Origin: Rhodospirillales bacterium
Lineage (GTDB): Bacteria; Pseudomonadota; Alphaproteobacteria; Rhodospirillales; UBA2165
DNA: 64,000 nucleotides
Assembly (NCBI GenBank): GCA_022823235.1
Contig: JAJDXO010000022.1
Coordinates: forward strand, 61,955-125,954
Reading direction: 5' to 3'
In this document: positions 14,187 through 35,213 of the stretch, in pieces
Layout of the letters: the number at the start of each line of letters is the position of its first letter
Position numbering within the stretch: the first letter of the stretch is position 1
Notes under the pieces: generated by a model
Databases searched by the model: none
The model's input: only the letters and a program-made list of their open reading frames with translations
Told to the model about the DNA's origin: nothing
Made by a program: the position numbers and the translations under genes

Positions 14187-14864
14187 TCATACAAGCATTT
14201 CTATGGTTTGGTCGGTCGTTCTCACGTCGCCGAAGGATTGGTAAAACGAGGTCAATCCGGCCAGGTGGTCATCGTCATACCGGGCTGCGTTTGCGTCCTC
14301 GACCATCACCACCTTGTAGTCCAGCATCATGGCGTCACGAGCCGTGGATTCGCTGCACATGTTGGTCGCCGTGCCCGCCACGATCAGGTTTTCGATACCC
14401 AGTCCCTGCAATATGTCGTGCAGATCCGAAGCGCCGACGATGAACGGCGAGAAGCGTCTCTTGGTGACGATACGGTCGTCGTCCCTGACCTCGAGGTCGG
14501 GATAAATTTCGTAGCCCTCGTTGCCGGGGCTGAGTTTGGTCAGGTGGTTCCGGCCCTTAGCTTCGGTGAAGAAATACTCGTGGTAGATTTGCCATTGGCT
14601 CGGCGCGCCTTCGTTTTCGGCACACCGCATGATCACCCAAATGACCGGCGCCCCCTTCTCCCTGCATGCCGCGGCAAGCCGATTGATATTGGGGACGATC
14701 GAGATCGCCGTGTCCACCTCGGCCACATAGAAATTCTGCATGTCGATGACGAGGAGTGCGGTCTTGGGCGCTTCAAACGTGTCGAATACTTCCAGCCTTC
14801 CCCGCTTGGCCATGATCCTTTCGATCACGTAGTCGGGGATTTTCACATCATGGGGCATGCCCAT
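14187..14864 (-). CDS. isochorismatase-family cysteine hydrolase
   Basis: TALLVIDMQNFY (Asp motif) and the catalytic Cys context LIVAGTATNMCSESTARDA are characteristic of the isochorismatase/nicotinamidase superfamily. Confidence 0.85.
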   Translation of the reverse strand: MGMPHDVKIPDYVIERIMAKRGRLEVFDTFEAPKTALLVIDMQNFYVAEVDTAISIVPNINRLAAACREKGAPVIWVIMRCAENEGAPSQWQIYHEYFFTEAKGRNHLTKLSPGNEGYEIYPDLEVRDDDRIVTKRRFSPFIVGASDLHDILQGLGIENLIVAGTATNMCSESTARDAMMLDYKVVMVEDANAARYDDDHLAGLTSFYQSFGDVRTTDQTIEMLV

Positions 14865-14888
14865 TTCCTCCCATTAGATTATTATCTT

Positions 14889-14908
14889 TGCCCACTTTAT
14901 CCCACTAG
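14889..14908 (-). promoter_or_regulatory. copy 1 of a shared 20-nt upstream motif (plus strand TGCCCACTTTATCCCACTAG)
   Basis: Identical to 19558-19577 and related to 16481-16501. It lies 25 nt upstream of the minus-strand start at 14864. Confidence 0.5.
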
Positions 14909-14917
14909 TGGAGCGTT

Positions 14918-16399
14918 TCAAAATGGTTTTTGGCCGCCGCCGGATGGGGAGAAATTCATTCGTGCCGGTTTACGAACACCGGATCGCCGCTTGCGGGTCA
15001 CGGTAAACGTCTCGTTCACGAACCACATCCCGCCGTGCCTGACGAGCACCTCGCGCACCACGTCCAGATAGCGGGAATCCCGGGACATGACCTGTTGCGC
15101 CAGCTCCTCCTTGACCTCGACGAAATAGAGCGCGTTGTTCCAGGCAGACGAGAGGGAGAGCAGTCCAAGTTCGTGTTCGTCCATCGACGGCAGTGTGTGC
15201 ATATCGAACCGGAACAGGGAACGGGCGTCGGTCAGGCCGCTGAATTTGAAGTCGCCTTGCCGGGCGCCCAGAGCCTTTCGGAAATCGCGCAGAATGTCGT
15301 AGCGGTTCACGAACGGAATCCGCTGCTTCGGCCAAACGCCGCGCACGATTTCATGGGCGGGATCGTCTCCATGCGACTGAATGACGGTCATCCGACCGCC
15401 CGGCGCCAATCGCTCGACCACGGGTCTCAATACGTAGTCGATCCTGAACTTCATGGTGTGGCTGTGGAGGTAGGGGTGATTGAGCAGGCAGTAATCGTAC
15501 GTTCGGATACCCTCTCCAGCTCTCGGAACGACGTCCTTCAGGTTGGCCCGCTGGTCCTTTCTGTAAATCGTCACCACGCTCGGCACGGCGTAGACCGGTT
15601 GCGCGTGTTCGCCCTGGTAAACGACCCATTCCTTCGAGAGGTCTTCGTAAAGCGCCGCCACCTGCTTCTGGAAGTCGTAGCTCCGGTCGCCATCGAGCGC
15701 CACGTCCCGCCAGATCAGGTCCTCGGGACAATCGCCGGACTTCTTCTCGAGATCGAGCGCTTCCCAAAGATACATATTGGTCATGACGAAAACGCTTAGC
15801 GGATGCTCCGCCATGCGATCCACGAGCCGCCCCATCGTGTTGCGGAGGTCCTCCAATCCACGGCCCTTCAGAACGACAAGCACCGGCGTGTCGGGCAATG
15901 TGGCATTCAAGGCGCGGAGCGTTCGGGTCAACGTGATCCCATTGTCCATGGGCGTGTAGAACAAACGGATGCCCGGCGGGCCCGGCTGCAAATTCTTGAG
16001 CTCCTCGGCCACGCGGTCAGCCAAAACCCACGACTCATTCGTCGTGCCGGCGAACACATGGAAGCGCTGGCGCTGCTCATGAAAGGCGAAACTGCCCGGC
16101 GTGCGGATCGAGGTTTCCTGGCTGATGAGCTCGGCCATGGTCTCCGCATTGGACTGGGCCTTCTTTCGGCGCGGCCGGCCGCGAAGTTCTATCTCGCCCC
16201 GGTCGGCCCGCTCGATGAACGCCGCGATTCGCTCGGCGGTCCGGGACTCGATGCGGCTGCCGCTTGATATACGGCCGACAAGCTTGCCGTCGTTGACCGC
16301 AAGCCGGCCGAACGTCGATTCCGCAATTTTGTGCTTCTTGCAAAATGCCCGAATTGCCGCGGCCAGCTTTTCCGGTTTATCGAGGAGGTGGAGAACCAT
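14918..16399 (-). CDS. hypothetical protein (493 aa): N-terminal HTH-like segment plus a possible class-I methyltransferase-like C-terminal half
   Basis: Long ORF with good GC3 bias. The N-terminus (KIAESTFGRLAVNDGKLVGRISSG) looks HTH-like. VLRPVVERLAPGGRMTVIQSHG resembles the post-motif-II region of SAM methyltransferases. The assignment is tentative. Confidence 0.55.
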   Translation of the reverse strand: MVLHLLDKPEKLAAAIRAFCKKHKIAESTFGRLAVNDGKLVGRISSGSRIESRTAERIAAFIERADRGEIELRGRPRRKKAQSNAETMAELISQETSIRTPGSFAFHEQRQRFHVFAGTTNESWVLADRVAEELKNLQPGPPGIRLFYTPMDNGITLTRTLRALNATLPDTPVLVVLKGRGLEDLRNTMGRLVDRMAEHPLSVFVMTNMYLWEALDLEKKSGDCPEDLIWRDVALDGDRSYDFQKQVAALYEDLSKEWVVYQGEHAQPVYAVPSVVTIYRKDQRANLKDVVPRAGEGIRTYDYCLLNHPYLHSHTMKFRIDYVLRPVVERLAPGGRMTVIQSHGDDPAHEIVRGVWPKQRIPFVNRYDILRDFRKALGARQGDFKFSGLTDARSLFRFDMHTLPSMDEHELGLLSLSSAWNNALYFVEVKEELAQQVMSRDSRYLDVVREVLVRHGGMWFVNETFTVTRKRRSGVRKPARMNFSPSGGGQKPF

Positions 16400-16480
16400 G
16401 CGCTCTCATGTGATGTCCGACGGGAATGCGGACGCATTCAATTCGTTTGGCGGGAAACTTGGAAAATTCGCTTGCAGTAT

Positions 16481-16501
16481 TGCCCATTATCTGCCCATTA
16501 G
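16481..16501 (-). promoter_or_regulatory. copy 2 (variant) of the shared motif: TGCCCATTATCTGCCCATTAG
   Basis: A direct repeat of GCCCAYT at a ~11-bp period. It lies in the divergent region between the 493-aa gene (start 16399) and the LigM-like gene (start 16560). Confidence 0.4.
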
Positions 16502-16559
16502 TAAACAGAAAAGGCTCACGGCTATATATGCTCACCGCTTCCGGAAGGGGAGAAGGTCA

Positions 16560-17924
16560 ATGGCGATCGAAACACTCGAAGACAAGATCAACTCGATAGG
16601 CAATCCGGTGGATATGCTGCGAAACGCCGCGGCCGGGCCCTACCAGTTCCCCATCACCCCGGAGTTCAGCAATTGGCGCGACGAGCAGGAGGCGTGGCGC
16701 AACGGCGCGGTCCTGTTCGACCAGTCGTTCCACATGACCGATCTGTATGTGGACGGTCCGGATACCAGGAAGTTGTGCGAGCACCTGGCGGTTAATTCGA
16801 TGGCCAACTGGCAGCGCGATCTCGCCAAGCAATTCGTCCACTGCACGCCGGATGGTTATGTGGTTGGCGACGCCATCATATTCATCCTCGAGGAAGACAA
16901 AGCCAATATCGTCAACAAGCCCAGCAATGCCAACTGGGTCATGTATCATGCCGAGAAAGAGGGGTATGACGTCTCCTTCGACCTCGACATGCGTGCGCTG
17001 GACAACAAGGAACGGCGCAAGGGATACAGGTTCGAAGTCCAGGGTCCCGAGGCCTGGTCGATCCTCGAAAAACTGAACGGCGGGCCGATCGAGCCGTTCA
17101 AATTCTTCCGGATGGGTGAGATCAACGTGGCCGGCCGGCGCGTACGGGCGCTGCGTCACGGCATGGCCGGCGCAGTCGGCTTGGAACTCTTCGGCCCGTT
17201 CGACGACTACGATCTTATCCGCGACGCCATCCTCGAGGCCGGCCGGGAATACGGCATCAGAGCCGCCGGCTCCAAGACCTATGCGACCGTCGCCCATGAA
17301 TCGGGGTGGTTCCCCTCGCCCCTTCCCGCGATCTATTCCGGCGGCGATCTTGCCGATTACCGGCGGTGGCTGCCCGCGACAAGCTTCGAGGCCAACCTGT
17401 CACTGGGCGGCTCGCTGGTCAGCGACAACGTGGAGGACTACTACCTCACGCCCTACGACCTGGGCTACGGCCATATTGTGAAGTTCGACCATGATTTCAT
17501 CGGGCGCGAAGCGTTGGAGGCAAAGAAGGATCGGCCGCACAAGCACAAGGTGACGCTTCGGTGGAACAAGGACGATGTGCTGAAGGTGTTTGCTTCCATG
17601 TTCAATGAGGGCGACCGGTACAAGTTCCTCGACATACCGGCATCCCACTACGCGACCTGCCCCTATGATCTCGTGACCAGGGACGGCAAGCCTGTGGGCC
17701 TCTCCCACTACCCGGTCTACACATCCAATGTCGCCGGCTGGATTTCCCTGGCCCTGCTGGACGAGGAAGCGGCCGCCCCCGGCACGAAAGTTTCATTGAC
17801 TTGGGGCGAGCCCGACGGCGGCACCGGGAAACCGGCGGTGGAGCGCCACGTTCAGACTGAAATCGCCTGCACCGTGGAGCCGTGTCCGATCTCGGTCACG
17901 GCGCGGGAAACGTACAGAAAGTAG
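16560..17924 (+). CDS. tetrahydrofolate-dependent aryl O-demethylase, LigM/DesA-like (aminomethyltransferase/GcvT fold)
   Basis: Start at MAIETLEDK with a GGGGAGAAGG RBS. As I recall LigM/DesA, the similarity runs the full length (PEFSNWRDEQEAWRNGAVLFDQSFHM, LRHGMAGAVGLELFGP, ESGWFPSPLPAIYSG, YGHIVKFDHDFIGREALE, SVTARETY). Confidence 0.8.
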   Translation: MAIETLEDKINSIGNPVDMLRNAAAGPYQFPITPEFSNWRDEQEAWRNGAVLFDQSFHMTDLYVDGPDTRKLCEHLAVNSMANWQRDLAKQFVHCTPDGYVVGDAIIFILEEDKANIVNKPSNANWVMYHAEKEGYDVSFDLDMRALDNKERRKGYRFEVQGPEAWSILEKLNGGPIEPFKFFRMGEINVAGRRVRALRHGMAGAVGLELFGPFDDYDLIRDAILEAGREYGIRAAGSKTYATVAHESGWFPSPLPAIYSGGDLADYRRWLPATSFEANLSLGGSLVSDNVEDYYLTPYDLGYGHIVKFDHDFIGREALEAKKDRPHKHKVTLRWNKDDVLKVFASMFNEGDRYKFLDIPASHYATCPYDLVTRDGKPVGLSHYPVYTSNVAGWISLALLDEEAAAPGTKVSLTWGEPDGGTGKPAVERHVQTEIACTVEPCPISVTARETYRK

Positions 17925-17972
17925 GGACCACCGACGCAATGTAATCCCAGCTGTCCATGGTCCGCGCAGGCG

Positions 17973-18542
17973 TCAGATAAAGTGCGGAACTTCCCTTTTG
18001 GTGGGCCCGACCGAATAACGCGGGTCCGGTCTTCGGCCGCCCCACCGGTCAGCCGTGACGTCCTCCAGAACGACCTGATGGTCAAGCGAACGGCCGAGTT
18101 TGCCATCCCATAGCGTCGCCCTGTTCCCCGGCACGGCGTTTTCGCAGACCACCAGGAAGCCGCGGGGAAGCACCTCTCCCGAACCGCCATTTTCCGAGAT
18201 CAACTCGGACGGCAAGCCTACTTCGCCGAGGGATTGTCCATTGAGCGCGATGGCATCGAGGTGGCCGGCCAGGTTTTTCAGGCGCCAGGCTTTTCGCGCC
18301 AGCACGATACTCCCGGAAGCCAACCGCACCGCCGGCGATATGAGCGCGCCGCCGCCCAATGCGGTGAGCGCATACCTCGAATTGGCCTCCTCGCCCTGCT
18401 CCACCTGATGGTAGAGCTCGGTTGTCAGAACCGTCAGGGGCGTCGGGGTGCTGCCGACAAATATGCGGTCGATCACGATATCCGGCGTGGTGATATTCCC
18501 TTCCGGTCCCTCGACGTGCGGCTTGTACAGAAAGAGCGACAT
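17973..18542 (-). CDS. hypothetical protein (189 aa)
   Basis: Starts 12 nt downstream of the stop of the BNR-repeat gene on the same strand. Composition is coding-like. I recognise no family. Confidence 0.5.
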   Translation of the reverse strand: MSLFLYKPHVEGPEGNITTPDIVIDRIFVGSTPTPLTVLTTELYHQVEQGEEANSRYALTALGGGALISPAVRLASGSIVLARKAWRLKNLAGHLDAIALNGQSLGEVGLPSELISENGGSGEVLPRGFLVVCENAVPGNRATLWDGKLGRSLDHQVVLEDVTADRWGGRRPDPRYSVGPTKREVPHFI

Positions 18543-18554
18543 GACGATGTCTCC

Positions 18555-19526
18555 TCAAACGGGCGCCCAGGCAATCATGCGGATTTCGCCGAGTTCACGG
18601 TCCGCCTTTTGCCAGCTTTCGCCGCCATCCGTGCTTTTGAATATTTGCCCGAAGATGGTTGCCGCAAAAAGCAACGAGGGATCCGCGGCGTTGGTCCCGA
18701 TCGACCACAAGGTGCTGTTGGGTTCGTGGGACAACGCGCACTCCGCCCAGCTGTCTCCAAAATCGCGGCTGATGAGAAACTGCCCCGCCTCGCCGGACGG
18801 CCTGTCGCCCACCGAAGCGATCACGACGGGGGAGTTCGCCGCGGGCTGCTTGATGCTTCGAAAATAGTCCCATCTCGCCAGCGGGATATTCAACTGCTCC
18901 CATGTCGCGCCGTTGTCGGCCGACCTGTGCAGCCCATCTTCGGTCGAACACAGGATGGTTCGCTCGTCCCCCTCGTCCAGAAACACCAAATCGTGGGTAT
19001 CGTTGTCGTGCAGTCCCTCGATCATCAGCCGCCAAGTTTTGCCCCGGTCGTCGGAACGGATCACCCCATCGATTTCGACGGTAATCCATATGGTATCTTC
19101 GTACTTCGGGTCGAATTGGACCGACGTCACGCGGGACGTGTTGATGAACCAGCATTCGGTTGAAGCATTCAGATTGGCCCGCGTCCAGGTCTGCCCATCA
19201 TCCTCCGAGGTGAATATTTCACCCGGCCGCGTGCCGCAGGCAATGAAATTGGGGTCGTTCGGCGCGCGGGCGATCTGGAGAATGTGGAGCGAATCCATGG
19301 GAGAGGGGATGTAGTCGAACCGGCCGTTGTCCTCGGTGAACCGGTAAAGGCCCTGATCGGTCCCCGCCAGCACCTCCCCGGGCCGAGCATGGTGTGTGTT
19401 GACCGACCAGCATCTCGCTTCGTTGTAAAATCCGCCGGTCGGCGTGGGCAGGCGGTTCCAGCTTTCCCCCTCGTCTTCGCTGATCCAAACGCTTTGCATG
19501 GTCGCCGCGTAGGCCTTGTATCTCAC
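18555..19526 (-). CDS. BNR/Asp-box repeat beta-propeller protein (sialidase-fold / Ycf48-like)
   Basis: Six SxDxGxTW-type Asp-boxes: SEDEGESW, SEDDGQTW, SDDRGKTW, SADNGATW, SRDFGDSW, STDGGESW. GTG start with GAGGA 9 nt upstream. Confidence 0.8.
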   Translation of the reverse strand: MRYKAYAATMQSVWISEDEGESWNRLPTPTGGFYNEARCWSVNTHHARPGEVLAGTDQGLYRFTEDNGRFDYIPSPMDSLHILQIARAPNDPNFIACGTRPGEIFTSEDDGQTWTRANLNASTECWFINTSRVTSVQFDPKYEDTIWITVEIDGVIRSDDRGKTWRLMIEGLHDNDTHDLVFLDEGDERTILCSTEDGLHRSADNGATWEQLNIPLARWDYFRSIKQPAANSPVVIASVGDRPSGEAGQFLISRDFGDSWAECALSHEPNSTLWSIGTNAADPSLLFAATIFGQIFKSTDGGESWQKADRELGEIRMIAWAPV

Positions 19527-19557
19527 AACCTAAATCCTCGGCAGTCCAAAACCGTTC

Positions 19558-19577
19558 TGCCCACTTTATCCCACTAG
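19558..19577 (-). promoter_or_regulatory. copy 3 of the shared 20-nt upstream motif (TGCCCACTTTATCCCACTAG)
   Basis: A 20/20 match to 14889-14908. It lies 32 nt upstream of the minus-strand start at 19526. Confidence 0.5.
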
Positions 19578-19897
19578 ATGAATTTTTCAATCCATGTTTT
19601 CCGGGTTCCGCCCATTGCCAAAATCCGGTTGCGGCTGCGACACCCCCAAGAGCGGGCTAGGTCACAATTTAACGACGGCATCACGATAGGCGAGAAGTCA
19701 CCCGCCGCCTCCGTCGAAATTTGTCCTCCAACGCGGACAATCAAAGGACTATGAGGATAAATTCCCTAAATGAAATACAGGGATTAAATCGATCGACAAC
19801 AGGGGATTTCAGGCGTGCAGCAAGGAATGCCAAGGTGCAACAGATTATGGTGCGATTGTCAAATGCCGTGCCATGTACTGAACCCTCGGGGGCATGA

Positions 19898-20350
19898 CTA
19901 CTTGTGCCCCTCATGCCCGTGACTGCCGGGGCCGTGTCCCCTCTGCATCTTCTTTTCTTTCATATGGTCCGGCCCGCCCGGGGAGAACATTATTTTCTCG
20001 CCGAGCCTATCCCGAAACGGTTTCGCCAGGTCGTAGACGAACCGCCACTCGCCAAACATCTCCAATTCAATCTCGAACTCATAGCGGCCGGCCGAATGGC
20101 GCGCCGCATTGGCGGGTACGGGCTTGACATTATGGGCCAGGGGCATCGAAGGCATATCCGCTTTGACCATGATGTCCGCCCCAGTCAGGGGCTTCCCATC
20201 CTGCATGAGCATGACCGTACAACTGAAGGTAAGTTTTGCGTCCGTAGGTTTGCACTCCGTCTTGCTCTTGACCGCCTGCGCATGTACCGGCGACGCCATC
20301 AGAACGCCCGCCAACGAAACCAGTCCAATGCTACTCGCGAGCCATTTCAT
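19898..20350 (-). CDS. secreted FixH/YtkA-like domain protein with a His-rich C-terminal tail
   Basis: Start at MKWLASSIGLVSLAGVLMASPVHA (signal peptide) with a GGAGG RBS. It has a Met-rich segment (ADMPSMPLAH) and the tail HGPGSHGHEGHK. It is the last gene of the long minus-strand array and overlaps the preceding ATPase gene by 20 nt. Confidence 0.5.
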   Translation of the reverse strand: MKWLASSIGLVSLAGVLMASPVHAQAVKSKTECKPTDAKLTFSCTVMLMQDGKPLTGADIMVKADMPSMPLAHNVKPVPANAARHSAGRYEFEIELEMFGEWRFVYDLAKPFRDRLGEKIMFSPGGPDHMKEKKMQRGHGPGSHGHEGHK

Positions 20351-20987
20351 TTGCCCTCCCCCTTTTGAGTTGGCCATTTACCATTAAAAAAAACTGACTC
20401 GAGTCGGCGTTGTCCGGAACGTTGTGCTGACCGGTCACCAATACACCGACGCCATCTCGCCTGAGCGCGGCTATTCCCTCCCACACTCGATGACCCGGGT
20501 CCGTTGAAAGGCCCAAAAGCGGTTCATCGAGCAGGAGATATTTTGGCGAGGTCATAACTCCCCGCCCAAACGCAAGCATTTGCGCCTGTCCGCCGCTCAA
20601 CGAGTACGCCGGTGCATTCAACAGGGGGCCCAGTTCCGGGAATAGCGCAAGGACACGATCCATCTGTCCTCGCGCACCGGATACCGCGGAGCCGAATTCC
20701 AGGTTCTCGCGCGTCGTCAGACTTGCGAACAGATGCCGCCCTTCCGGCGCCAACACCACGCCCCTCCGCAACATCAGTGCGGGGGTTCTGCGACGTCCCG
20801 GCCGCCCGTCCACGATAATCTCGCCTTCCGAACGGACGGCGCCGACAATGGCTTTAAGCAGGCTGGATTTTCCGGCCCCATGATGACCGTCGAGGATAAC
20901 GAGGCCACCTGAAGCGAGTGTGAAATCGGCCTGGCGGACCGCCTGTACCAAGCCATAGCGCACCGAGATATTCTTCAGTTCAAGCAT
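20331..20987 (-). CDS. ABC ATP-binding protein, LivF-like (second set, divergent motifs)
   Basis: Start at MLELKNISVRYG. Walker A is GHHGAGKSS, the signature is LSGGQAQML and Walker B is LLLDEP. The H-loop region is atypical (LVTGQHN). Confidence 0.8.
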   Translation of the reverse strand: MLELKNISVRYGLVQAVRQADFTLASGGLVILDGHHGAGKSSLLKAIVGAVRSEGEIIVDGRPGRRRTPALMLRRGVVLAPEGRHLFASLTTRENLEFGSAVSGARGQMDRVLALFPELGPLLNAPAYSLSGGQAQMLAFGRGVMTSPKYLLLDEPLLGLSTDPGHRVWEGIAALRRDGVGVLVTGQHNVPDNADSSQFFLMVNGQLKRGRANEMARE

Positions 20988-21639
20988 CCCCGACAGCCTC
21001 TGCGGGCTTTCCCGCTGTCGCGACTGACGGAACATGGCTTTCCAATGTCACAATCTCGTCGACGAGAACGCGCATCAGATCCTGGCGATGCTCAACGATC
21101 AGCAATGCCGCGTCGCCGGAAACATTCCGCGACAGGAACCGGGCGAATGCGGATAATTCCTCACCGGACAGGCCGGCGGAAGGTTCATCCAGGAACAGCA
21201 CCCTGGGGTCGGCGAGAAGCGCACGCACAACTTCGATCTTACGAAGTACCGGAAGAGGAACCTGGAATGGAAAGAGATCCAAAACGTCCTCCAGGGCACT
21301 ATGAGCGACCAACTGTCTCCTGCGGGCGGGATCGCATGTTTCGAAGCGAAACTGATCTCGTACCGTTAGAGTGGGGACGAGGCGCGACGTTTGAAAACTG
21401 CGTCTAATTCCCGCCCGGGCGTATTTCCAGGGAGGCTGGTCATTGAGAGAATGCCCATCAAGTAATATCTGCCCGGAACTGGGCGCCAGGAATCCGGTCG
21501 CAATGTTGATCAACGTCGATTTGCCCGTCCCGTTCCCGCCGCTTAATCCAACACGGTCACCAGGCTTCAAAACAATCGAAATGTCGTCCAGCACGTGGAC
21601 ACCCCCGAACGACTTGGTTATGCGTCTGAGCTCAAACAT
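20980..21639 (-). CDS. ABC ATP-binding protein, LivG-like (second set) with a degenerate ABC signature
   Basis: Walker A is GGNGTGKST and Walker B is LFLDEP. The LSxGxQ signature position reads PLPVLRKIEVVRAL. The protein is 219 aa versus 253 aa for the first-set LivG. Confidence 0.75.
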   Translation of the reverse strand: MFELRRITKSFGGVHVLDDISIVLKPGDRVGLSGGNGTGKSTLINIATGFLAPSSGQILLDGHSLNDQPPWKYARAGIRRSFQTSRLVPTLTVRDQFRFETCDPARRRQLVAHSALEDVLDLFPFQVPLPVLRKIEVVRALLADPRVLFLDEPSAGLSGEELSAFARFLSRNVSGDAALLIVEHRQDLMRVLVDEIVTLESHVPSVATAGKPAEAVGDA

Positions 21640-22531
21640 CGCGGCGCCGAATGCGTCCCCACAATCTGTTGACGGCGCGGGGGCTCAACAGGCCTTGGGG
21701 GAATATAATCAGGAGCACCGCCACCAGACCGCCAAAGGCAATCATTCGATATTCCGAAAGCGCTCTGATGCTCTCCAGCAGCCCGATATCAATTCCGACA
21801 CCAATTAGAGGCCCAAGGGGTGCGCCGAGACCTCCGATAACCGTATAGGCCAAGGCATGGACACCCAGCATCACGCCAAACATTTGGGGCTCGATGTGAG
21901 TGTTGAACAGAGCGAACAGTGCGCCGCCAAATCCTGCAACCATGCCGGATAGACCGATGAAGGCCATGCGGTAGTGGTCCGGCCGAACACCCAATGATTG
22001 GGCCAGCAGCGAATCTCTTCCGACCAACCTGGCCCGCAACATGACGGTGGTGCGCTCGAAATAGAACAGCAGCAGCAGGAGCGCCAGTAAACAGACAACC
22101 GTGAGAATGAGGAAATCGGTCACCTCGAAATCATTCTCGAATATCCAGCGAATGTTGGAGAATCCCTCTGGTCCGTCCATGCCCGTGGACCTGCCATCGA
22201 TCTCGAGGGGAATTCGAATTCTGAGTAATGTGAGGCGCAGGAGTTCGGCAAAGCAAAGCGAGGCGATGGCGAAATAGAGACCGGACAATCGAATGACTAA
22301 CGCAGCCAGGAGCAGCGCCGCCAGCCCCCCTGCAATGGTACTCAGGAAAAGCGCCAAAATTATATGCCCGCCAAAAATCGCGGTTACGGTAGCCGTGACA
22401 TATGCGCCAATTGCAAAGAAGGCCTGTTGACCAAAGGAAACCTCTCCCACCACCAAAACGAGGTAAGCCGACAACGCCAGGAATGAAATGAGAGCGACGT
22501 TCGTGAGCGTGGATGCAACGTAGAGGCTCAT
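21632..22531 (-). CDS. branched-chain amino acid-type ABC permease (LivM-like, second set)
   Basis: A 299-aa polytopic protein of the LivM family type, translationally coupled to its neighbours. Confidence 0.85.
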   Translation of the reverse strand: MSLYVASTLTNVALISFLALSAYLVLVVGEVSFGQQAFFAIGAYVTATVTAIFGGHIILALFLSTIAGGLAALLLAALVIRLSGLYFAIASLCFAELLRLTLLRIRIPLEIDGRSTGMDGPEGFSNIRWIFENDFEVTDFLILTVVCLLALLLLLFYFERTTVMLRARLVGRDSLLAQSLGVRPDHYRMAFIGLSGMVAGFGGALFALFNTHIEPQMFGVMLGVHALAYTVIGGLGAPLGPLIGVGIDIGLLESIRALSEYRMIAFGGLVAVLLIIFPQGLLSPRAVNRLWGRIRRRDV

Positions 22532-22533
22532 CG

Positions 22534-23430
22534 CTAAATCCTCTCCGCCGCCAGACGGCCGGTTCGATAGATGGCCTCGCCCAGCAGACCGCCGGGCCGC
22601 AAGACCAGAATGAGCAACAGCAGGCCAAACGTCAAAATGTCACGAAACTCGGCACCCAGGTAAAAGGTTACGTGGGCCTCGGCGAAGCCCAGCAGCAGCC
22701 CGCCAACTATTGCACCCGGCAATGATCCCACCCCCCCAAGCATCATTGCGATCAAACCCTTGAATGTGCTCCAAAGACCGAAGTGCGGCGTGATCTGCCC
22801 GTCACTGGATAAAATAAGAAATGCCGCTATTCCTCCCAGGACGCCGGCCAATCCGAACGTCGCCATTCCCAATCGCGCGACTTTGCCACCAAGAAGATAA
22901 GCGGTATCCGGGTCGTCGGCGGACGCCCTCAACAACAACCCGAAACGGGTGCGATAGAGGGTCCAGTAGAGCGCCCCGATCGCAACGACGGCGACCCAGA
23001 AATGAAGAATCTGATCGCCCCGCAAAATTATGCCGGAGAACGATACCGCCTCGATATCAATTCCGGCGAAGCTGTGGGTCCGGTGAGGCAGCAATTGAGA
23101 CGAGATCTCATCCAGCTGCATCCAGATTGCAAAACTGGCGATCATCGACGCCATGACTCCCGTCTTCCCAAGATGAGGGGAAAAACAAAGCCGCTCGACA
23201 TAAATGCCGGCAAACGCGGCGCCCAGTACGGTAACCAAAAAAACTCCTACCGCTCCCCAACCAATGATCGGCTCCAGCCAGACCGCGAGCGCACCACCGA
23301 ACAGAAGCGACGACCCATAGGCCAAATTGATACGCTTCATGATCCCGAAAATGAGCGAAAAGCCGAGCGCCAAGAGAGCGTACGCCGATCCAAACAGTAG
23401 TCCGTCGATAGACGTCTGAAGGAAATCCAT
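22534..23430 (-). CDS. branched-chain amino acid-type ABC permease (LivH-like, second set)
   Basis: A 298-aa protein with a LivH-like N-terminus (LQTSIDGLLFGSAYALLALGFSLIFG). Confidence 0.85.
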   Translation of the reverse strand: MDFLQTSIDGLLFGSAYALLALGFSLIFGIMKRINLAYGSSLLFGGALAVWLEPIIGWGAVGVFLVTVLGAAFAGIYVERLCFSPHLGKTGVMASMIASFAIWMQLDEISSQLLPHRTHSFAGIDIEAVSFSGIILRGDQILHFWVAVVAIGALYWTLYRTRFGLLLRASADDPDTAYLLGGKVARLGMATFGLAGVLGGIAAFLILSSDGQITPHFGLWSTFKGLIAMMLGGVGSLPGAIVGGLLLGFAEAHVTFYLGAEFRDILTFGLLLLILVLRPGGLLGEAIYRTGRLAAERI

Positions 23431-23446
23431 CCCGGCTTCCGATTTG

Positions 23447-24160
23447 CTAATGTTCGCCCAGGTACGCCCGCTTGATTACGTCGTCGTTGGCCATTTCACC
23501 GGGCGTTCCACTGAAGGCGACCTTGCCCTGGTCCAGCAGGTAGAAATGATCAGCGACCTCAAGCGCCTTCACGGCATTTTGCTCGACCAGCAGGATCGAT
23601 ATGCCGTCATTATTCATTTGCCTGATAATGGAAAAAATTTCGTCGACGATAAGAGGAGCCAGACCGAGAGATGGCTCGTCCAGCAGAAGCATCTTTGGTC
23701 GCGACATAAGGGCCCGTGCAACAGAAAGCATTTGTTGCTCACCGCCCGACAATGTTCCCGCGGTCTGTTCCTCGCGCTCTTTGAGGACGGGAAACCGGTC
23801 GAACATATTCTCCAGGTCTTCAGCGATCTCCGTCGCTTCCGAACGATGTCGAATATATGCGCCGGCCAGCAAATTGTCCCTGACCGACATCTGCGGAAAG
23901 ACCAGGCGGTTCTCCGGAACCAAGGCGAGGCCCTGCTGCAATATCCTGGGCGCCGACGAACCCGCCAACTCAGCCCCGTCGAATTTGACGGACCCGGAAC
24001 TGGGTTTCAGTATTCCGGCCGCGGTAAACAAGAGGGTTGTCTTGCCGGCGCCGTTCGGGCCCAGAATACATGTTACTTTTCCGTCTTCGGCCGTTAGCGA
24101 CACACCCTTCAGCGCTCTGATCAATCCATAGGAGGTGGAGAGATTTTCTATCGAGAGCAT
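23447..24160 (-). CDS. livF: ABC ATP-binding protein LivF-like (first set)
   Basis: Start at MLSIENLSTSYG, right after the upstream stop. Canonical motifs GPNGAGKTT, LSGGEQQML, LLLDEPSLGLAP and LLVEQN are present. Confidence 0.9.
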   Translation of the reverse strand: MLSIENLSTSYGLIRALKGVSLTAEDGKVTCILGPNGAGKTTLLFTAAGILKPSSGSVKFDGAELAGSSAPRILQQGLALVPENRLVFPQMSVRDNLLAGAYIRHRSEATEIAEDLENMFDRFPVLKEREEQTAGTLSGGEQQMLSVARALMSRPKMLLLDEPSLGLAPLIVDEIFSIIRQMNNDGISILLVEQNAVKALEVADHFYLLDQGKVAFSGTPGEMANDDVIKRAYLGEH

Positions 24161-24161
24161 G

Positions 24162-24923
24162 TCAGTTCCCCGCCTCCACATTTTTCGCGGAACCGAAATA
24201 GGCCTCCTGAACCATCTCGTTATTTTGAATTTCAAGCGGCGTGCCCTCGGCGATGGGCTTGCCGAAATTCAAGACGGTGATCCGATCGGTAACACTCATC
24301 ACCAAATCCATTACATGCTCGACAAGAAGCACGGTCATCCCGAGATTCTTCATCGTCAGTATTCGATTTCTGAGGTCGGCCACCTCTTCCGAATTCATCC
24401 CCGCGGCCGGCTCATCAAGCAAAATGAGCTTGGGCTTCGACGCCATTGCCCTCGCAAGTTCAAGTCGGCGCTGCTCCCCGAAGGACAGGCTGCTGGCCGG
24501 TCTGTCCGCGCGATCCCCAAGCCCTGAAAATTCCAGCAGCTTCTGAATTTCATGCCGCCGGTCGGCCGGACTGCCGAACCAATTTACCAACCAGCTTGTC
24601 TCGTGGCCCGGCGCGTCGCGCCAGGCAACCCATAGATTCTGCCAGACCGTCAGATCACCGAAGAGACGGATATTTTGGAACGTTCTGGAAACACCGAATT
24701 CTATTCTCTGGTGCGGCGCCAGCCTTCCCAGGTCAACGTTATCCAGCTCGATCGTGCCCGCCGTTTGAGGGAAGACACCGCAGATCAGATTGACGGTCGT
24801 GCTTTTCCCCGACCCGTTGGGCCCGATCAGGCCGAATATCTCACCCTTGTTTATCTGCATGTCGAGGCCATCGACGGCCCGAACGCCACCGAAGTATTTC
24901 GCAAGGTTGGTGAGCTTAAGCAT
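24162..24923 (-). CDS. livG: ABC ATP-binding protein LivG-like (first set)
   Basis: Canonical motifs GPNGSGKST, LSFGEQRRLELARAM, LLDEPAAGMN and LLVEHVMD are present. Confidence 0.9.
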   Translation of the reverse strand: MLKLTNLAKYFGGVRAVDGLDMQINKGEIFGLIGPNGSGKSTTVNLICGVFPQTAGTIELDNVDLGRLAPHQRIEFGVSRTFQNIRLFGDLTVWQNLWVAWRDAPGHETSWLVNWFGSPADRRHEIQKLLEFSGLGDRADRPASSLSFGEQRRLELARAMASKPKLILLDEPAAGMNSEEVADLRNRILTMKNLGMTVLLVEHVMDLVMSVTDRITVLNFGKPIAEGTPLEIQNNEMVQEAYFGSAKNVEAGN

Positions 24924-25833
24924 CGATGCCGCCTCTCTTTTGATTCATCCGGAGCAGCTTTCTCAAATCGGAGGTGAAATTGCCGTCAACGAGTCCCTGC
25001 GGTCTGAAATTCATCGCAACGATGATCAGCAGACCAAAAAGAATATTGCGGTAATCCCCCATGAAACGGAGGCCTTCGATGATGAAGCCCTGGATGAATA
25101 TGACCGCCATCAGGGTTCCAAGGACGTTTTTCAGACCGCCTAGAATCGGGTAGGAGACCGCGAAGGTCGCCAACAAAATCGAGAATGTGTGGTGATCGAC
25201 ATATGTGGTCGAGTGGGCGAACAGGCCGCCGGCAATTCCCGCGATGACGCCACCGCCGGTCATCGCCGCAACCTTGACCATTGTCAGGTTGACGCCTGAG
25301 CTTTGCGCCGCCAGCTCGTCCTCACCCACCGCCCGCAGGACGGCGCCGGCACGTACTTTGTCCAGCCACCAGAGAAGGACCATGACCAGAATCACGATCA
25401 GCCAGATTAGTAGAACCACATGCGCCTGTTCCCAGCCGTTCGCGGCAAAGTAACGGATTTCCCTGAAGCCCTGAGTGCTGTCCGGTCCAACCTCGAGGCC
25501 GTTCACTTCGACCCGCCAGTTCACGTTGAAAAATACGAGACGGACAATTTCGGAGAAAGCGATGGTTGCCACCACCAGCATCAGTCCCTTGACCCGCAGG
25601 GCCGGGAAGCCGACCAGGAATGCAAAAAATCCCGCAACCAGCGCACCAACCAATAGCGCCGGCAAGATATGCCACCCGAATATGACCGTCAAAATGCCGG
25701 AAACGTACGATCCAATCGCAAAAAATCCGACCTGTGCGAGACTTAACTGCCCGGTCAGCAGCAATACGTATGCCGACAAGCCAAGCAGCGTATGGACGCC
25801 AATCGTTTGTGTAATTCCGAGGTAATATTCCAT
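24916..25833 (-). CDS. livM: branched-chain amino acid-type ABC permease LivM-like (first set)
   Basis: A 305-aa polytopic LivM-type protein. It overlaps livG by 8 nt. Confidence 0.85.
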   Translation of the reverse strand: MEYYLGITQTIGVHTLLGLSAYVLLLTGQLSLAQVGFFAIGSYVSGILTVIFGWHILPALLVGALVAGFFAFLVGFPALRVKGLMLVVATIAFSEIVRLVFFNVNWRVEVNGLEVGPDSTQGFREIRYFAANGWEQAHVVLLIWLIVILVMVLLWWLDKVRAGAVLRAVGEDELAAQSSGVNLTMVKVAAMTGGGVIAGIAGGLFAHSTTYVDHHTFSILLATFAVSYPILGGLKNVLGTLMAVIFIQGFIIEGLRFMGDYRNILFGLLIIVAMNFRPQGLVDGNFTSDLRKLLRMNQKRGGIDA

Positions 25834-25837
25834 CGGG

Positions 25838-26725
25838 TCAATCCCGATCTATGGAAGTCCCGAAAATGCCATTAGGCCGGACCACCAAAAACAGAAAGAG
25901 CACCAGGAAGACATAAATGTCGCGCTCGTTGACGCCGCGGAACAAAAGAAAAAGATTTTCCAGCGCGCCGATCATGAAGCCTGCGGCAATGGCGCCGCGA
26001 ATACTCCCGAGCCCGCCGATAACGGCCACAATCAACCCCTTTACCGTCAACGGCAGCGTCAGAAGAGGCGACAGAACACCGACCGCGGCAGCGGCCAAGC
26101 ATCCGGCGACACCACCGAGGACGCCCGCCAGCACGAATACGGTTGAATTCGTCCTATGGGTCGGAATACCGCAGAGAAGCGACGCCACCGGTTGTTGCGA
26201 GGCCGCCCGGGTCGCAAGACCCATTTTGGTACGATAGAGCATGAAGACGATCACACCCATCAGGACGAAGCTCGCAAAGGTGACAAACAGCAGGTCACCG
26301 CGAAACCCGAACTCGCCAACGGGAAAATAGGCGTCCGGAAGCAGGACCGGGAACGTTATCGGCGAACCGGCCGTTTTGTCGATTATCAACTCGTCTATAA
26401 AGAAAAGCGCGCCGATTGATGCCATCAGAGGGGCAAGCATGTTATTGCGCGGCATAAATTGGAAACACGAAATATAAATGAGCAGCCCCACGAGACCGGC
26501 CGCCAACGGACCGACCAGAAATGCGATAACGGTCGGCACGGCGAATATTGTGATTGAAGCCAAGCCGATATAGGCGCCGGCAATGGAAGACGCGGCGTAG
26601 GCCAGATTCAGCTTGTGCATCGCGCCAAAAATGAGCGTGAAGCCAAGCCCGACCAATGCGTAGACCGAACCAAAAAGCACGCCATCAATAAGCGATTGAA
26701 CGATATCGATATGATCGAAGTTCAT
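25838..26725 (-). CDS. livH: branched-chain amino acid-type ABC permease LivH-like (first set)
   Basis: A 295-aa protein with LivH-type sequence (LIDGVLFGSVYALVGLGFTLIFG). Confidence 0.85.
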   Translation of the reverse strand: MNFDHIDIVQSLIDGVLFGSVYALVGLGFTLIFGAMHKLNLAYAASSIAGAYIGLASITIFAVPTVIAFLVGPLAAGLVGLLIYISCFQFMPRNNMLAPLMASIGALFFIDELIIDKTAGSPITFPVLLPDAYFPVGEFGFRGDLLFVTFASFVLMGVIVFMLYRTKMGLATRAASQQPVASLLCGIPTHRTNSTVFVLAGVLGGVAGCLAAAAVGVLSPLLTLPLTVKGLIVAVIGGLGSIRGAIAAGFMIGALENLFLLFRGVNERDIYVFLVLFLFLVVRPNGIFGTSIDRD

Positions 26726-26809
26726 TGTTTCCTGTGACGGTGAATTGGCCGTCGATCCTGTTATGGCCCGCTAGGTTAGGTCCAATTTATTACCAGATCA
26801 AAGTGGAGT

Positions 26810-26853
26810 GGCAGTCCGCGGCAGGGGACTAGCTGCTGCTGCCGCGGACTGCC
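26810..26853 (-). other. intercistronic stem-loop (15-bp perfect stem) between the binding-protein gene and the permease genes
   Basis: GGCAGTCCGCGGCAG-(14 nt)-CTGCCGCGGACTGCC, located 17 nt downstream of the binding-protein stop on the minus strand. No clear U-tract follows. Confidence 0.5.
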
Positions 26854-26869
26854 TGCACTAGCGCGTCAG

Positions 26870-28132: not shown

Positions 28133-28257
28133 TTCAGCTACTACCTCTCTGCTTCAGTGGTTATCAAATAAACTAGCTCTGTCATTTTCCTGTTTTGGAA
28201 GGCATTCACTTGCCCCAAAACCAAGGGCCAAGCGGGTGCTTCCTCCGTTTCTTCGAA

Positions 28258-29124: not shown

Positions 29125-29147
29125 TGGTCGAATCTCCTGCAGGGTGT

Positions 29148-32098: not shown

Positions 32099-32109
32099 TT
32101 ACGTTGCCC

Positions 32110-33636: not shown

Positions 33637-33729
33637 CTTCCTTCCCTGCCCATCACTCCGCCGAACATGATTATTATCGGGGATGATCTATATTTTTTGA
33701 CCGACCGTCTATAAAAATAGCAAAATTTT

Positions 33730-35033: not shown

Positions 35034-35047
35034 AATAGTATACTATT
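35034..35047. promoter_or_regulatory. perfect 14-bp palindrome AATAGTATACTATT upstream of the permease-SPFH operon
   Basis: Self-complementary on inspection. It shares the core TATACTAT with the box in the znuA/pit intergenic region and lies 34 nt upstream of a sigma70-like -35 hexamer. Confidence 0.4.
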
Positions 35048-35080
35048 TCGTTAGAAAACATTAAGGACGTCTATTTTCAG

Positions 35081-35109: not shown

Positions 35110-35213
35110 CCCGAAAGTTTTCCGATAAACGGGACGCCCCGCGAACGGGATTGGGCTGGAGTCGGTAAAGTGGCGATATTCCCCGGCTTGCAACGGGCAA
35201 CGAAGAAAGCGCC

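Follow-up and report, generated by a model that had tools for sequence, protein, structure and literature searches.

Genes and motif copies at the locus

In the window, the whole 64-kb stretch of DNA that was analysed, a gene for a LigM/DesA-like O-demethylase is flanked on both sides by minus-strand genes. The genes of the locus are:

14187..14864, minus strand: isochorismatase-family hydrolase gene (Pfam Isochorismatase, E 2e-43)
14918..16399, minus strand: gene for a 493-aa protein, candidate regulator (AlphaFold and Foldseek)
16560..17924, plus strand: LigM/DesA-like tetrahydrofolate-dependent O-demethylase gene, divergent from the 493-aa gene (Pfam GCV_T)
17973..18542, minus strand: 189-aa gene, 12 nt after the BNR gene (ORF list)
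18555..19526, minus strand: BNR/Sortilin-type beta-propeller gene, 323 aa, GTG start (Pfam Sortilin-Vps10, BNR, PSII_BNR)

The LigM-like gene product is a close homologue of LigM (PDB 5x1i, E 3e-148), with NCBIfam scores of 594.7 bits for DesA (cut-off 800) and 566.6 bits for LigM (cut-off 580), both below the equivalog cut-off. Searches of the 189-aa protein against Pfam and NCBIfam gave no match; its gene forms a pair with the BNR gene in 11 of 18 near loci and is probably co-transcribed with it. The start of the isochorismatase gene is more likely at 14858, as in the public gene call (223 aa), than at 14864. Copies of a short motif lie upstream of these genes and are predicted to be operators:

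14858..14877, minus strand: weak fourth operator copy (predicted), CTAATGGGAGGAAATGGGCA, over the Shine-Dalgarno sequence (ribosome-binding site) and start codon of the isochorismatase gene
14889..14908, minus strand: predicted operator of the isochorismatase-family gene, same sequence as the BNR copy
16481..16501, minus strand: predicted operator of the 160-bp divergent region, CTAATGGGCAGATAATGGGCA, half-sites 11 bp apart
19558..19577, minus strand: predicted operator of the BNR/189-aa operon, CTAGTGGGATAAAGTGGGCA, two half-sites 10 bp apart

The 20-mer TGCCCACTTTATCCCACTAG, which reads CTAGTGGGATAAAGTGGGCA on the minus strand, occurs with a 20/20 match at 14889-14908 and 19558-19577, and the variant TGCCCATTATCTGCCCATTAG is located at 16481-16501. 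A sequence-only reading had reported these three copies, and a sequence search confirmed them together with their distances to the start codons (25 nt to the ATG at 14864, 32 nt to the GTG at 19526, and 82 and 59 nt to the ATGs at 16399 and 16560, respectively). The weaker fourth copy had been overlooked. The four copies are all oriented along the minus strand, like the genes that follow them, and each consists of two TAGTGGG(C/A)A-type half-sites in direct orientation with a period of 10-11 bp; the common orientation and direct-repeat geometry described for three copies thus extend to the fourth. The period of ~11 bp is that of pho-box-type direct repeats. The half-sites of 14858-14877 are helically phased with those of 14889-14908 (spacings of 10, 21 and 10 bp).

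The pattern CTA[AG]TGGG-N4-5-A[AG]TGGGCA has four matches in the 64 kb vs. none in 200 first-order Markov simulations. No third site with up to 3 mismatches to the 20-mer was found in the window, and 100 shuffles gave 0 matches. With a position weight matrix (PWM) derived from 52 orthologous sites, only the four copies score above 12 bits in the whole 64 kb, at 35.4 bits (19558-19577), 34.2 bits (14889-14908), 32.5 bits (16481-16501) and, for 14858-14877, 18.5 bits, which is under every training site (lowest 21.7 bits). Similarity of the identical pair extends to 33 nt at 85% identity (14889-14921 vs. 19558-19590), including a common TTGAAA box. The motif scans covered the window and the fetched loci; the regulon may be larger, or copies may be scattered, elsewhere in the genome.

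Conservation of the motif in near relatives

The near set comprises 19 related loci (374.6 kb) whose 493-aa-family proteins are 56-74% identical. The pattern TA[AG]TGGG-N4-6-[AG]TGGG has 54 matches in these loci vs. 0.65 expected by chance, all 54 on the gene strand and 52 of them no more than 120 nt upstream of a cluster gene. Conservation upstream of orthologs, which the sequence-only reading had proposed as a check, is thus borne out. In ~20 other species the sites precede the BNR/189-aa operon, the isochorismatase gene, and the 493-aa gene with the region divergent from the LigM-like gene; the motif also precedes ECH and amine-oxidase genes in near loci. It tracks its genes whatever their place within the cluster, which argues for the single regulon that had been suggested, with the genes presumably co-regulated.

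Comparison across species showed that the half-site positions are conserved and that the spacers and flanks vary. A TA lies ahead of half-site 1 in all 52 of 52 sites, though the search did not demand it. The BNR-class sites of 11 loci have the consensus ATTGACA-N6-CTAGTGGGAnCATAGTGGGCA, and the divergent-region site TTTACTAGTGGGCAGAAAATGGGCAG is nearly invariant in 16 loci, beginning 33 nt from the LigM-like start codon in locus L009. Orthologous isochorismatase-class sites were found in 16 cases, and locus L003 has three phased half-sites where the fourth copy would be. A metagenome scan for exact YTAGTGGGNNNATAGTGGGCAG placed four of five matches upstream of BNR or isochorismatase genes, and three of those four stretches also carry a 493-aa-family gene. 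Words near-identical to the motif are present in an unrelated prophage-like contig.

An origin of the copies from a small dispersed repeat or mobile element, or from a functionless recent local duplication, would account for the 20/20 pair with its 33-nt extension and for the words in the prophage-like contig. However, only the half-site positions are kept across species, the sites occupy orthologous positions in ~20 species with an invariable strand, no terminal repeats or transposase genes are found at the sites, and the 64 kb holds no further copy. Such an origin is highly improbable.

Promoter context

Both identical copies are located within promoter-like sequences:

14894..14921, minus strand: predicted promoter TTGAAA-N16-TAAAGT, 9/12 positions; the -35 box holds the TGA stop of the 493-aa gene
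19563..19590, minus strand: predicted sigma-70-type promoter TTGAAA-N16-TAAAGT (consensus scan, 9/12 positions)

In the promoter at 19563..19590, the spacer contains half-site 1, and half-site 2 extends over the -10 box and the start region. Orthologous sites of the BNR, isochorismatase and ECH classes keep this layout. A sigma-70-like consensus was observed at 3 sites in the whole region vs. 2.2 expected, so that the match is weak by itself, and TTGAAA-N16-TAAAGT gains weight because the box is conserved in orthologues, whose predicted promoters include TTGACA-N16-nATAGT with the ATG just 6-50 nt downstream. The distance of the TTGACA-like box from the motif depends on the gene class: the box lies 6-7 nt upstream of BNR and isochorismatase sites and 20 nt upstream of 493-aa sites, and it overlaps the RidA sites.

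The specialised promoter that had been considered as one option, here one for an alternative sigma factor instead of a regulator site, is consistent with the constant orientation of the motif 25-80 nt upstream of start codons and with the coincidence of its ATAGT/TAAAGT part with a -10-like hexamer. The register to the TTGACA-like box, however, changes with the gene class, and identical half-sites one helical turn apart do not resemble a -35/-10 pair. In distant relatives, moreover, half-sites are seen in either orientation, also at positions ahead of the -35 box. The option is less likely than a regulator site, and we regard it as very unlikely.

If the predicted promoters are real, transcripts would include part of each site, and the fourth copy overlaps a ribosome-binding site, as could be expected of an element that acts as RNA in the 5' untranslated region (a leader structure, or a site bound by a small RNA or protein). 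This explanation has very little probability: there is no Rfam match at the sites, the repeats are direct and have no complementary arm, and in several classes the site is upstream of or inside the promoter.

Predicted structure of the 493-aa protein

Searches of the 493-aa protein against Pfam, NCBIfam and PDB sequences gave no match; among the families of interest below, this applies to ArsR, HTH_20 and HTH_5, to SKI (Pfam) and to MarR- and GntR-family domains (Pfam, NCBIfam). HTH_3, HTH_31 and related HTH profiles gave no match to four N-terminal fragments, at a cut-off as loose as E 10, and none to the full-length proteins. AlphaFold models of the protein (pLDDT of 85 and 86, the latter for the N-terminal model) indicate an XRE-like HTH domain at about residues 1-66, a disordered basic linker at 70-102 and a class-I methyltransferase fold at 103-470. 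The N-terminal model has helices at residues 2-7, 9-23, 27-35, 40-45 and 52-66. Its best Foldseek matches among PDB and viral structures are nearly all XRE/Cro-C1 HTH domains (TM 0.5-0.66, r.m.s.d. of ~2-3 Å), each individually non-significant with an E of 0.3-5; they include C.AhdI, HigA2, HipB, SinR of Bacillus subtilis (PDB 3zkc) and phage repressors. The N-terminal domain is the most conserved part of the protein, with invariant C20, T29, G31, N36, D37, G38, K39, R43 and G47, a conservation that would fit the unchanged half-site.

The C-terminal domain resembles class-I SAM methyltransferases in fold only (62 PDB matches at E <= 1e-3, with histamine N-methyltransferase at E 1e-7). The glycine-rich motif I (DxGxGxG) and the acidic residue at the end of beta-2 are missing in the window protein and the near clade, which have FYTPMDNG and KGR in their place; distant relatives and those without the HTH domain retain the SAM motif as FDAGxGDG and KE.

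The half-site array in distant relatives

The distant set consists of 62 loci with relatives of the 493-aa protein that are 36-43% identical. In an unbiased hexamer count upstream of the gene in these loci, half-site words ranked highest in enrichment, with AGTGGG (40-fold, 55/62 loci), TAGTGG (34-fold), TGGGCA (20-fold, 55/62) and GTGGGC (19-fold). The half-sites are found in both orientations, including the inverted pairs TGCCCAC-N7-9-GTGGGCA and GTGGGA-TATA-TCCCAC, and most lie just upstream of the -35 box, a placement compatible with activation too. The BNR, 189-aa and isochorismatase genes are missing from 61 of the 62 loci. Instead, the family member is directly upstream of a type-4 MTHFR gene in 46 loci and of metK(-ahcY) in 4. 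Upstream windows of 250 nt contain a median of 5 RTGGG at the HTH-bearing distant loci (at least 3 in 59/62) and 0-1 at homologues that have no N-terminal domain, the latter from 5 loci only, three of them AT-rich. The gammaproteobacterial relatives L028 and L029 show no clear half-site array. The family is present in at least 575 species.

No gene other than that of the 493-aa family goes with the half-site array throughout the family, and for this reason the 493-aa protein is the most likely binder of the motif. Its possible role as the regulator, raised in the sequence-only reading, is thereby strengthened, since the array follows the gene in distant loci and the model suggests an XRE-like HTH domain. 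The alternative is that the motif is a genuine operator bound by a transcription factor whose gene lies elsewhere, such as a response regulator of the OmpR/PhoB type, and that the 493-aa protein is an enzyme within the regulon. The direct-repeat geometry of 10-11 bp is the classic layout of winged-helix response regulators, the C-terminal domain has an enzyme fold whose stand-alone versions retain the SAM-binding motif, and the HTH assignment of the 493-aa protein is weak. As in the pho box of PhoB/OmpR, two direct repeats ~11 bp apart lie beside a promoter. Pho boxes, however, take the place of the -35 element, ~10 bp ahead of the -10 box, and are bound by a phosphorylated response regulator of the winged-helix type, whereas the sites here lie over the spacer, the -10 box and the start region, with a TTGACA-like box of its own further upstream. 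Nor does a response-regulator gene accompany the motif: Response_reg and Trans_reg_C genes are absent from the locus and the orthologous clusters, and the clusters contain no conserved response regulator or other DNA-binding gene. Furthermore, the array stays with the 493-aa-family gene in 55 of the 62 distant loci despite differing neighbours and is missing upstream of the HTH-less homologues. The response-regulator option is therefore less likely than the 493-aa protein, and a binder encoded elsewhere is unlikely.

Proposed mechanism

The sites are probably operators of an autoregulated one-component regulator, the 493-aa protein of an undescribed family, which would act on a local regulon, most plausibly as a repressor. 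The four copies would serve as operators in or beside the core promoters of three minus-strand units (BNR with 189-aa, 493-aa and isochorismatase), and the operator at 16481-16501 may also serve the divergent LigM-like gene. The XRE-like HTH domain would read the half-site. XRE-type proteins usually bind palindromes as dimers, whereas the near-clade sites are direct repeats; the disordered basic linker of ~30 residues could let two or more DNA-binding heads reach direct or inverted half-sites, while the methyltransferase-fold domain would join the subunits and receive the signal. Because the promoter spacer, the -10 box and the start region are all covered by half-sites, the protein is proposed to repress its target genes and its own gene, probably by blocking RNA polymerase. 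Binding of a ligand to the C-terminal domain would cause the protein to leave the DNA. The company that the family keeps, CH3-THF-producing demethylases, CH3-THF-oxidising MTHFR and metK/ahcY, points to a methyl-cycle metabolite or a methoxylated substrate as the ligand.

A broader reading, put forward tentatively and somewhat short of probable, is that a new one-component family with an XRE head fused to a SAM-methyltransferase-like protein reads GTGGGCA-type half-sites and couples tetrahydrofolate-dependent demethylation (LigM-like, type-4 MTHFR) and the SAM cycle (metK, ahcY) to methyl-group status. In the window clade, the SAM pocket would have been remodelled to sense another ligand, and the protein would control the BNR propeller, the 189-aa protein and the isochorismatase-like hydrolase. 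If so, the 493-aa protein founds a regulator family tied to genes of methyl-group removal and recycling.

Comparison with known regulators

BzdR of Azoarcus sp. CIB combines an XRE-type HTH, a linker and an enzyme-derived effector domain, and represses an aromatic-catabolism operon whose promoter is overlaid by several operator regions (PMC3602430). The 493-aa protein is predicted to have the same order of an N-terminal XRE-like HTH, a linker and a C-terminal enzyme fold, and stand-alone enzyme-like homologues of its C-terminal domain exist as for BzdR. However, its C-terminal fold is that of a class-I methyltransferase and not of shikimate kinase, it has no Pfam HTH match, and the two proteins have no detectable sequence relationship.

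The effector (sensor) domain of SahR and SamR is methyltransferase-like, and the 493-aa protein shares such a domain by fold resemblance only. SahR and SamR are SAH- or SAM-responsive methyl-cycle regulators of the ArsR family with targets including metK, ahcY and metF, and SahR binds a 20-bp palindromic site through an ArsR winged helix (PMC4239095). Similar to these targets, type-4 MTHFR or metK(-ahcY) adjoins the distant relatives of the 493-aa protein. In contrast to SahR, the DNA-binding domain is XRE-like by model, lacking the ArsR-type winged helix, and the sites are GTGGGCA-type repeats rather than a 20-bp palindrome. In the window clade, moreover, the glycine-rich SAM loop has been lost, as has the acidic residue of beta-2.

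SinR uses a small XRE-type domain to recognise a 7-bp monomer site that occurs in tandem and inverted arrangements. Its partner domain, half-site and biology all differ from those of the 493-aa protein, but the half-sites here are likewise direct in the near clade and in inverted pairs in the distant clade.

DesR, FerC and VanR belong to the MarR or GntR families and have inverted repeats as binding sites. They are repressors of vanillate/syringate O-demethylase genes (LigM/DesA type), ferulate genes and neighbouring aromatic-catabolism genes, and a metabolite of the pathway relieves the repression. The 493-aa protein differs from them in having no MarR or GntR domain. DesR is cited as a regulator in PMC11868366. 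The setting is similar to that of these three repressors, with a LigM/DesA-type demethylase gene and neighbouring genes under a proposed repressor.

Motif copies and genes of the locus

The genes of the locus are arranged as follows.

Genes of the locus
14187-14864, minus strand: isochorismatase-family hydrolase (Pfam, E 2e-43)
14918-16399, minus strand: 493-aa protein without a Pfam or NCBIfam match
16560-17924, plus strand: LigM/DesA-like THF-dependent O-demethylase (E 3e-148 to the solved LigM; under both NCBIfam equivalog cut-offs)
17973-18542, minus strand: 189-aa unknown protein without a Pfam or NCBIfam match
18555-19526, minus strand: BNR/Sortilin-type propeller (Pfam)

The 20-mer TGCCCACTTTATCCCACTAG has exactly two copies in the window, as the sequence-only reading had claimed, and reads CTAGTGGGATAAAGTGGGCA on the minus strand, the strand of the downstream genes. 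Allowing up to three mismatches added no match in the window, and 100 shuffles gave none. The motif-to-start-codon distances reported earlier (25 nt for the isochorismatase gene, 32 nt for the BNR gene, 82 and 59 nt for the 493-aa and LigM-like genes) proved correct when re-measured. Each proposed operator consists of two TAGTGGG(C/A)A-type half-sites placed 10-11 bp apart in direct orientation.

Proposed operators in the window
14858-14877, minus strand: fourth copy, CTAATGGGAGGAAATGGGCA, covering the Shine-Dalgarno sequence and start codon of the isochorismatase gene
14889-14908, minus strand: exact 20-mer upstream of the isochorismatase gene
16481-16501, minus strand: variant copy, CTAATGGGCAGATAATGGGCA, between the divergent 493-aa and LigM-like genes
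19558-19577, minus strand: exact 20-mer upstream of the BNR gene

The similarity of the two identical copies runs on to 33 nt at 85% identity, with a common TTGAAA box. The region upstream of the isochorismatase gene contains four half-sites with spacings of 10, 21 and 10 bp, which places them on one face of the helix. The pattern CTA[AG]TGGG-N4-5-A[AG]TGGGCA has four matches in the window versus none in 200 first-order Markov simulations. A weight matrix derived from orthologous sites marked only four places in a scan of the 64 kb (35.4, 34.2, 32.5 and 18.5 bits), the weakest being the fourth copy, which scores below every training site.

Between the proposed operator at 16481-16501 and the 493-aa start codon lies a perfect 16-nt palindrome, GAATGCGGACGCATTC (16424-16439), which may form a hairpin in the leader or be bound by a second regulator. 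Within 14916-14990, the 493-aa gene ends in a TGA that falls inside TTGAAA, the -35 box of the predicted promoter for the isochorismatase gene.

Conservation of the motif in close relatives

Relatives of the 493-aa protein form 1231 clusters at 90% identity, all unnamed or hypothetical, and occur in at least 575 species-representative genomes; the organisms named are Paracoccaceae/Rhodobacteraceae and other Alphaproteobacteria. Close relatives of the locus were compared in 19 loci from Paracoccaceae, Rhizobiaceae, Hoeflea and others, in which the family protein is 56-74% identical (the near clade). Conservation upstream of orthologues, suggested earlier as a check on the motif, was found in these loci: TA[AG]TGGG-N4-6-[AG]TGGG has 54 matches in 374.6 kb, where base composition predicts 0.65. 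Every match is on the gene strand, the opposite strand having none, and 52 lie no more than 120 nt from a cluster-gene start (median 44.5 nt).

The motif immediately precedes the BNR/unknown pair, the isochorismatase gene and the family gene itself, is present between the LigM-like gene and the RidA/family-gene operon, and in some relatives also immediately precedes enoyl-CoA hydratase or amine-oxidase genes. It stays with these genes despite their changed positions within the clusters. The consensus of the 52 sites is CTAGTGGG(A/C)nnA(A/T)A(G/A)TGGGCAG, in which the TA preceding the first half-site is invariant, though the search left it free. Since the TA and the half-sites are constant and the spacers and flanks vary, the conservation pattern bears the signature of a protein-binding site rather than of a repeat family. 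When the JGI metagenome collection was scanned for the exact pattern, five matches appeared, four of which are upstream of BNR or isochorismatase genes; three of these four stretches also hold a family gene. The fifth lies on an unrelated low-GC prophage-like fragment.

The prophage-like, low-GC locus L093 (JAEIGA010146778.1) encodes a holin, an endolysin and a tyrosine integrase, and carries the near-copies TTAGTGGGCAAATAGTGGGCAG and TTAGTGGGCACGTAGTGGGCAA at 1578-1599 and ~1763-1784, just 3' of the integrase gene. These may be arm-type integrase sites or a chance likeness. In two Gammaproteobacteria (L028 and L029, 43% identity), BNR, 189-aa-like, isochorismatase and LigM-like genes are nearby; no clear half-site array was found upstream of their family gene, and only a degenerate TAATGGGATAATGG-like word is present upstream of the BNR gene.

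The near-clade clusters (L003, L009-L027) are much larger than that of the window, which retains only five of their genes. They include genes for a FerA-like ADP-forming acyl-CoA synthetase, aldehyde dehydrogenase, SDR, tautomerase, enoyl-CoA hydratase, amine oxidase, esterase, GST and TRAP or ABC transporters, and some additionally hold PrpF/RraA-like/PIG-L genes.

Promoter context

Both identical copies in the window lie inside a consensus match, TTGAAA-N16-TAAAGT. In the near clade, three layouts were distinguished by consensus matching.

Promoter layouts in the near clade
BNR, isochorismatase and ECH classes: TTGACA-like box, 6-7 nt, CTAGTGGGAnnATAGTGGGCAG
493-aa family gene class: TTGACn-N17-(TATCTA/AATCTA/TAACGC..), then at once two half-sites, ~-7 to +15
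RidA class (divergent region): TTTACTAGTGGGCAGAAAATGGGCAG, almost invariant

The layout of the BNR, isochorismatase and ECH classes corresponds to TTGACA-N16-nATAGT, with the first half-site in the spacer and the second on the -10 box and start region. Only 6-50 nt separate the motif from the start codon in these classes, and thus no other promoter fits downstream. In the RidA class, the TTTACTAGTGGGCAGAAAATGGGCAG site of L009 starts 33 nt from the LigM-like start codon and must therefore overlap the promoter or leader of that gene. Relative to the sigma-70-like boxes, the motif sits in a different register from class to class, indicating that it is a site in its own right rather than a component of sigma recognition. 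In every class it overlaps core promoter elements of the consensus-matched promoters. Such overlap is the usual position of a repressor.

A class II activator site of the Pho-box kind would require a -10 box downstream of the motif. Such a box (GATAAT) follows only one copy, that at 14889, and several orthologues leave no room for it because the ATG is within 6-30 nt. An archaeal TATA/BRE or leaderless promoter was set aside, as the proteins place the locus in the Alphaproteobacteria. In the divergent region 16400-16560, a search of either strand gave only a weak match, TTTACT-N17/18-CAATAC/AATACT, and no promoter is claimed there. In three ECH-class loci (L021:15936, L022:15930 and L024:15928), the start codon is just 6-10 nt past the motif, which implies either that the transcript lacks a leader or that the operator lies inside an operon.

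Distant relatives and the probable binding protein

No known regulator gene was found to be conserved in the clusters. The 493-aa family gene is present in all of them. The relationship between this gene and the half-site was examined in a distant set of 62 loci (family protein 36-43% identical) from Pseudolabrys, Stellaceae, Acetobacteraceae, Burkholderiales and others. Sixty-one of these loci lack the BNR, 189-aa and isochorismatase genes, and only five have a LigM-like gene within 10 kb. ORF clustering around them is confounded by spurious high-GC ORFs, and public gene calls and tblastn were used.

An unbiased hexamer count of the 230 nt upstream of the family gene against 1.07 Mb of surrounding sequence ranked AGTGGG first (40-fold, 55 of 62 loci), followed by TAGTGG (34-fold), TGGGCA (20-fold, 55 of 62) and GTGGGC (19-fold). 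Together, the enriched hexamers spell the half-site of the window. The usual layout, CCCAC-N6-TGCCCAC-N7-9-GTGGGCA-N5-TTGTGG-TTGAC, has half-sites in both direct and inverted order and borders on a -35-like box, often with GTGGGA-TATA-TCCCAC palindromes further upstream. A natural control is provided by five loci with homologues of the C-terminal domain only, a small sample in which three genomes are AT-rich: 0-1 RTGGG words occur per 250 nt upstream, versus a median of five in the 250 nt upstream at the HTH-bearing loci (at least three in 59 of 62). The comparative evidence thus supports the earlier proposal of one regulon and its suggestion that the 493-aa protein could be the regulator, here taken as the likely one; binding of the motif by this protein is judged quite probable.

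The HTH-less proteins (P0123, P0127, P0135, P0136 and P0161; loci L098-L102) are 369-386 aa long and homologous to the methyltransferase-fold domain. In the four sequences that were read (P0123, P0127, P0135 and P0161), the acidic residue of beta-2 is retained, as is a glycine-rich motif I of the form xAGxGxG, three of them having DAGxGDG. No half-site array was found upstream of their genes.

Predicted structure of the 493-aa protein

As with Pfam and NCBIfam, a search of the 493-aa protein against PDB sequences gave no match. Its AlphaFold model (38-sequence alignment, mean pLDDT 85) shows three parts.

Parts of the AlphaFold model
Residues ~1-66: helical N-terminal domain
Residues ~70-102: disordered Arg/Lys-rich linker containing GRPRRKK
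After the linker: alpha/beta domain

The N-terminal domain, modelled on its own with a pLDDT of 86, has no match among the Pfam HTH models. Among structures in the PDB and a viral library, nearly all of its best matches are XRE/Cro-C1 HTH proteins, including C.AhdI, HigA2, HipB, SinR and phage repressors (TM 0.5-0.66, r.m.s.d. ~2-3 Å), with E values of 0.3-5, none significant alone. No other part of the family protein is as conserved as this domain (invariant C20, T29, G31, N36, D37, G38, K39, R43 and G47), which agrees with a half-site that stays constant in all members. Being long and flexible, the linker might allow one and the same head to read direct half-sites in one clade and inverted ones in another, an arrangement known for AraC and SinR.

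The alpha/beta domain model matches class-I SAM-dependent methyltransferases (62 PDB matches at E <= 1e-3; best, histamine N-methyltransferase, E 1e-7). The sequence features typical of SAM binding, FDAGxGDG and an acidic residue following beta-2, are retained in distant members. In the window protein and the near clade (at least 50% identity), FDAGxGDG is replaced by FY(T/A/S)PMDNG (FYTPMDNG in the window; residues ~145-180) and the beta-2 glutamate by glycine (KGR). The near clade probably no longer binds SAM canonically, and the replacements suggest a change of ligand. At its C-terminus, the window protein is extended by ~20 residues that none of the 37 aligned homologues has.

Methyl-group context of the family

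A type-4-like MTHFR gene directly follows the family gene in 46 of the 62 distant loci, and metK does so in four, with ahcY next in two of those (L030-L089, for example L075:11450-12298, and L095:9464-12105). Gene orders of this kind look like operons and would link the family with the methyl cycle. At locus L075, from Pseudolabrys sp. Root1462, the MTHFR-like protein matches S6MTHFR (PDB 7xg9) with an E value of 5e-56, versus 1e-7 for ordinary MTHFRs. S6MTHFR is a type-4 enzyme oxidising the CH3-THF that arises from LigM-type demethylases (PMC11868366). The same locus has pcaHG-like dioxygenase, LigM-like and MetE-like genes. In the near clade, the family gene adjoins the LigM-like gene, whose cluster encodes a FerA-like ADP-forming acyl-CoA synthetase, enoyl-CoA hydratase, aldehyde dehydrogenase and transporters. 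With MTHFR, metK/ahcY or LigM-like neighbours, the family is tied to THF- or SAM-borne methyl groups almost everywhere sampled.

Proposed mechanism and relation to known systems

We propose that the 493-aa protein, as a dimer or higher oligomer, would bind phased TAGTGGG(C/A)A half-sites overlapping the promoters of the BNR/189-aa operon, its own gene and the isochorismatase gene, with the divergent LigM-like gene probably a target as well. Repression would last until a ligand binds the methyltransferase-fold domain. The position of the sites slightly favours repression over activation.

The sensor of SahR/SamR is a methyltransferase-like domain, a likeness to the 493-aa protein. SahR/SamR is also the closest system in logic, as a regulator of the methyl cycle, but has an ArsR winged helix and a palindromic site (PMC4239095). 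BzdR is the closest in architecture, being a repressor with an XRE HTH, a linker, an enzyme-derived sensor and several operator regions; however, its C-terminal domain is shikimate-kinase-like rather than of the methyltransferase fold (PMC3602430). Pho boxes resemble the motif in repeat geometry only, and differ in position and type of binder. DesR, FerC and VanR also regulate demethylase genes, but are unrelated MarR or GntR proteins. At the sequence level, the 493-aa protein failed all tests of membership in the BzdR, SahR/SamR, Pho-box and DesR/FerC/VanR families. The literature searched on the motif, ligM regulators and HTH-methyltransferase regulators held no description of this family, nor, outside Sphingobium, of the regulation of THF-dependent O-demethylation or type-4 MTHFR genes. 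The operator set of a local one-component regulator is a familiar kind of system; no description seems to exist of the regulator family, its half-site or its connection with demethylation and the methyl cycle.

If the assignment is true, a widespread unannotated family would gain a function as a transcription factor, a DNA site and a regulon. It would offer a regulatory handle on THF-dependent O-demethylation and the recently described CH3-THF-oxidising type-4 MTHFR, and would add another enzyme fold recruited as a regulator sensor, beside those of BzdR and SahR. The BNR propeller, the 189-aa protein and the isochorismatase-like hydrolase, whose roles are unknown, would be tied to the demethylation pathway. 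The compact promoter-operator-regulator set is a potential biosensor for methoxylated aromatics or methyl-cycle metabolites.

Other features of the window

The window is part of a 158.8-kb metagenome scaffold. An Rfam scan gave a single sub-threshold match, to the Glutamine-II riboswitch (15175-15232, plus strand; 25.4 bits versus a gathering score of 33), which falls in the 493-aa coding region on the opposite strand and is probably due to chance. The G+C content steps at ~36 kb from 0.55-0.58 (20000-36000) to 0.63-0.68 (36000-64000), and the lower-GC stretch contains several ABC transporter operons of the branched-chain amino acid type.
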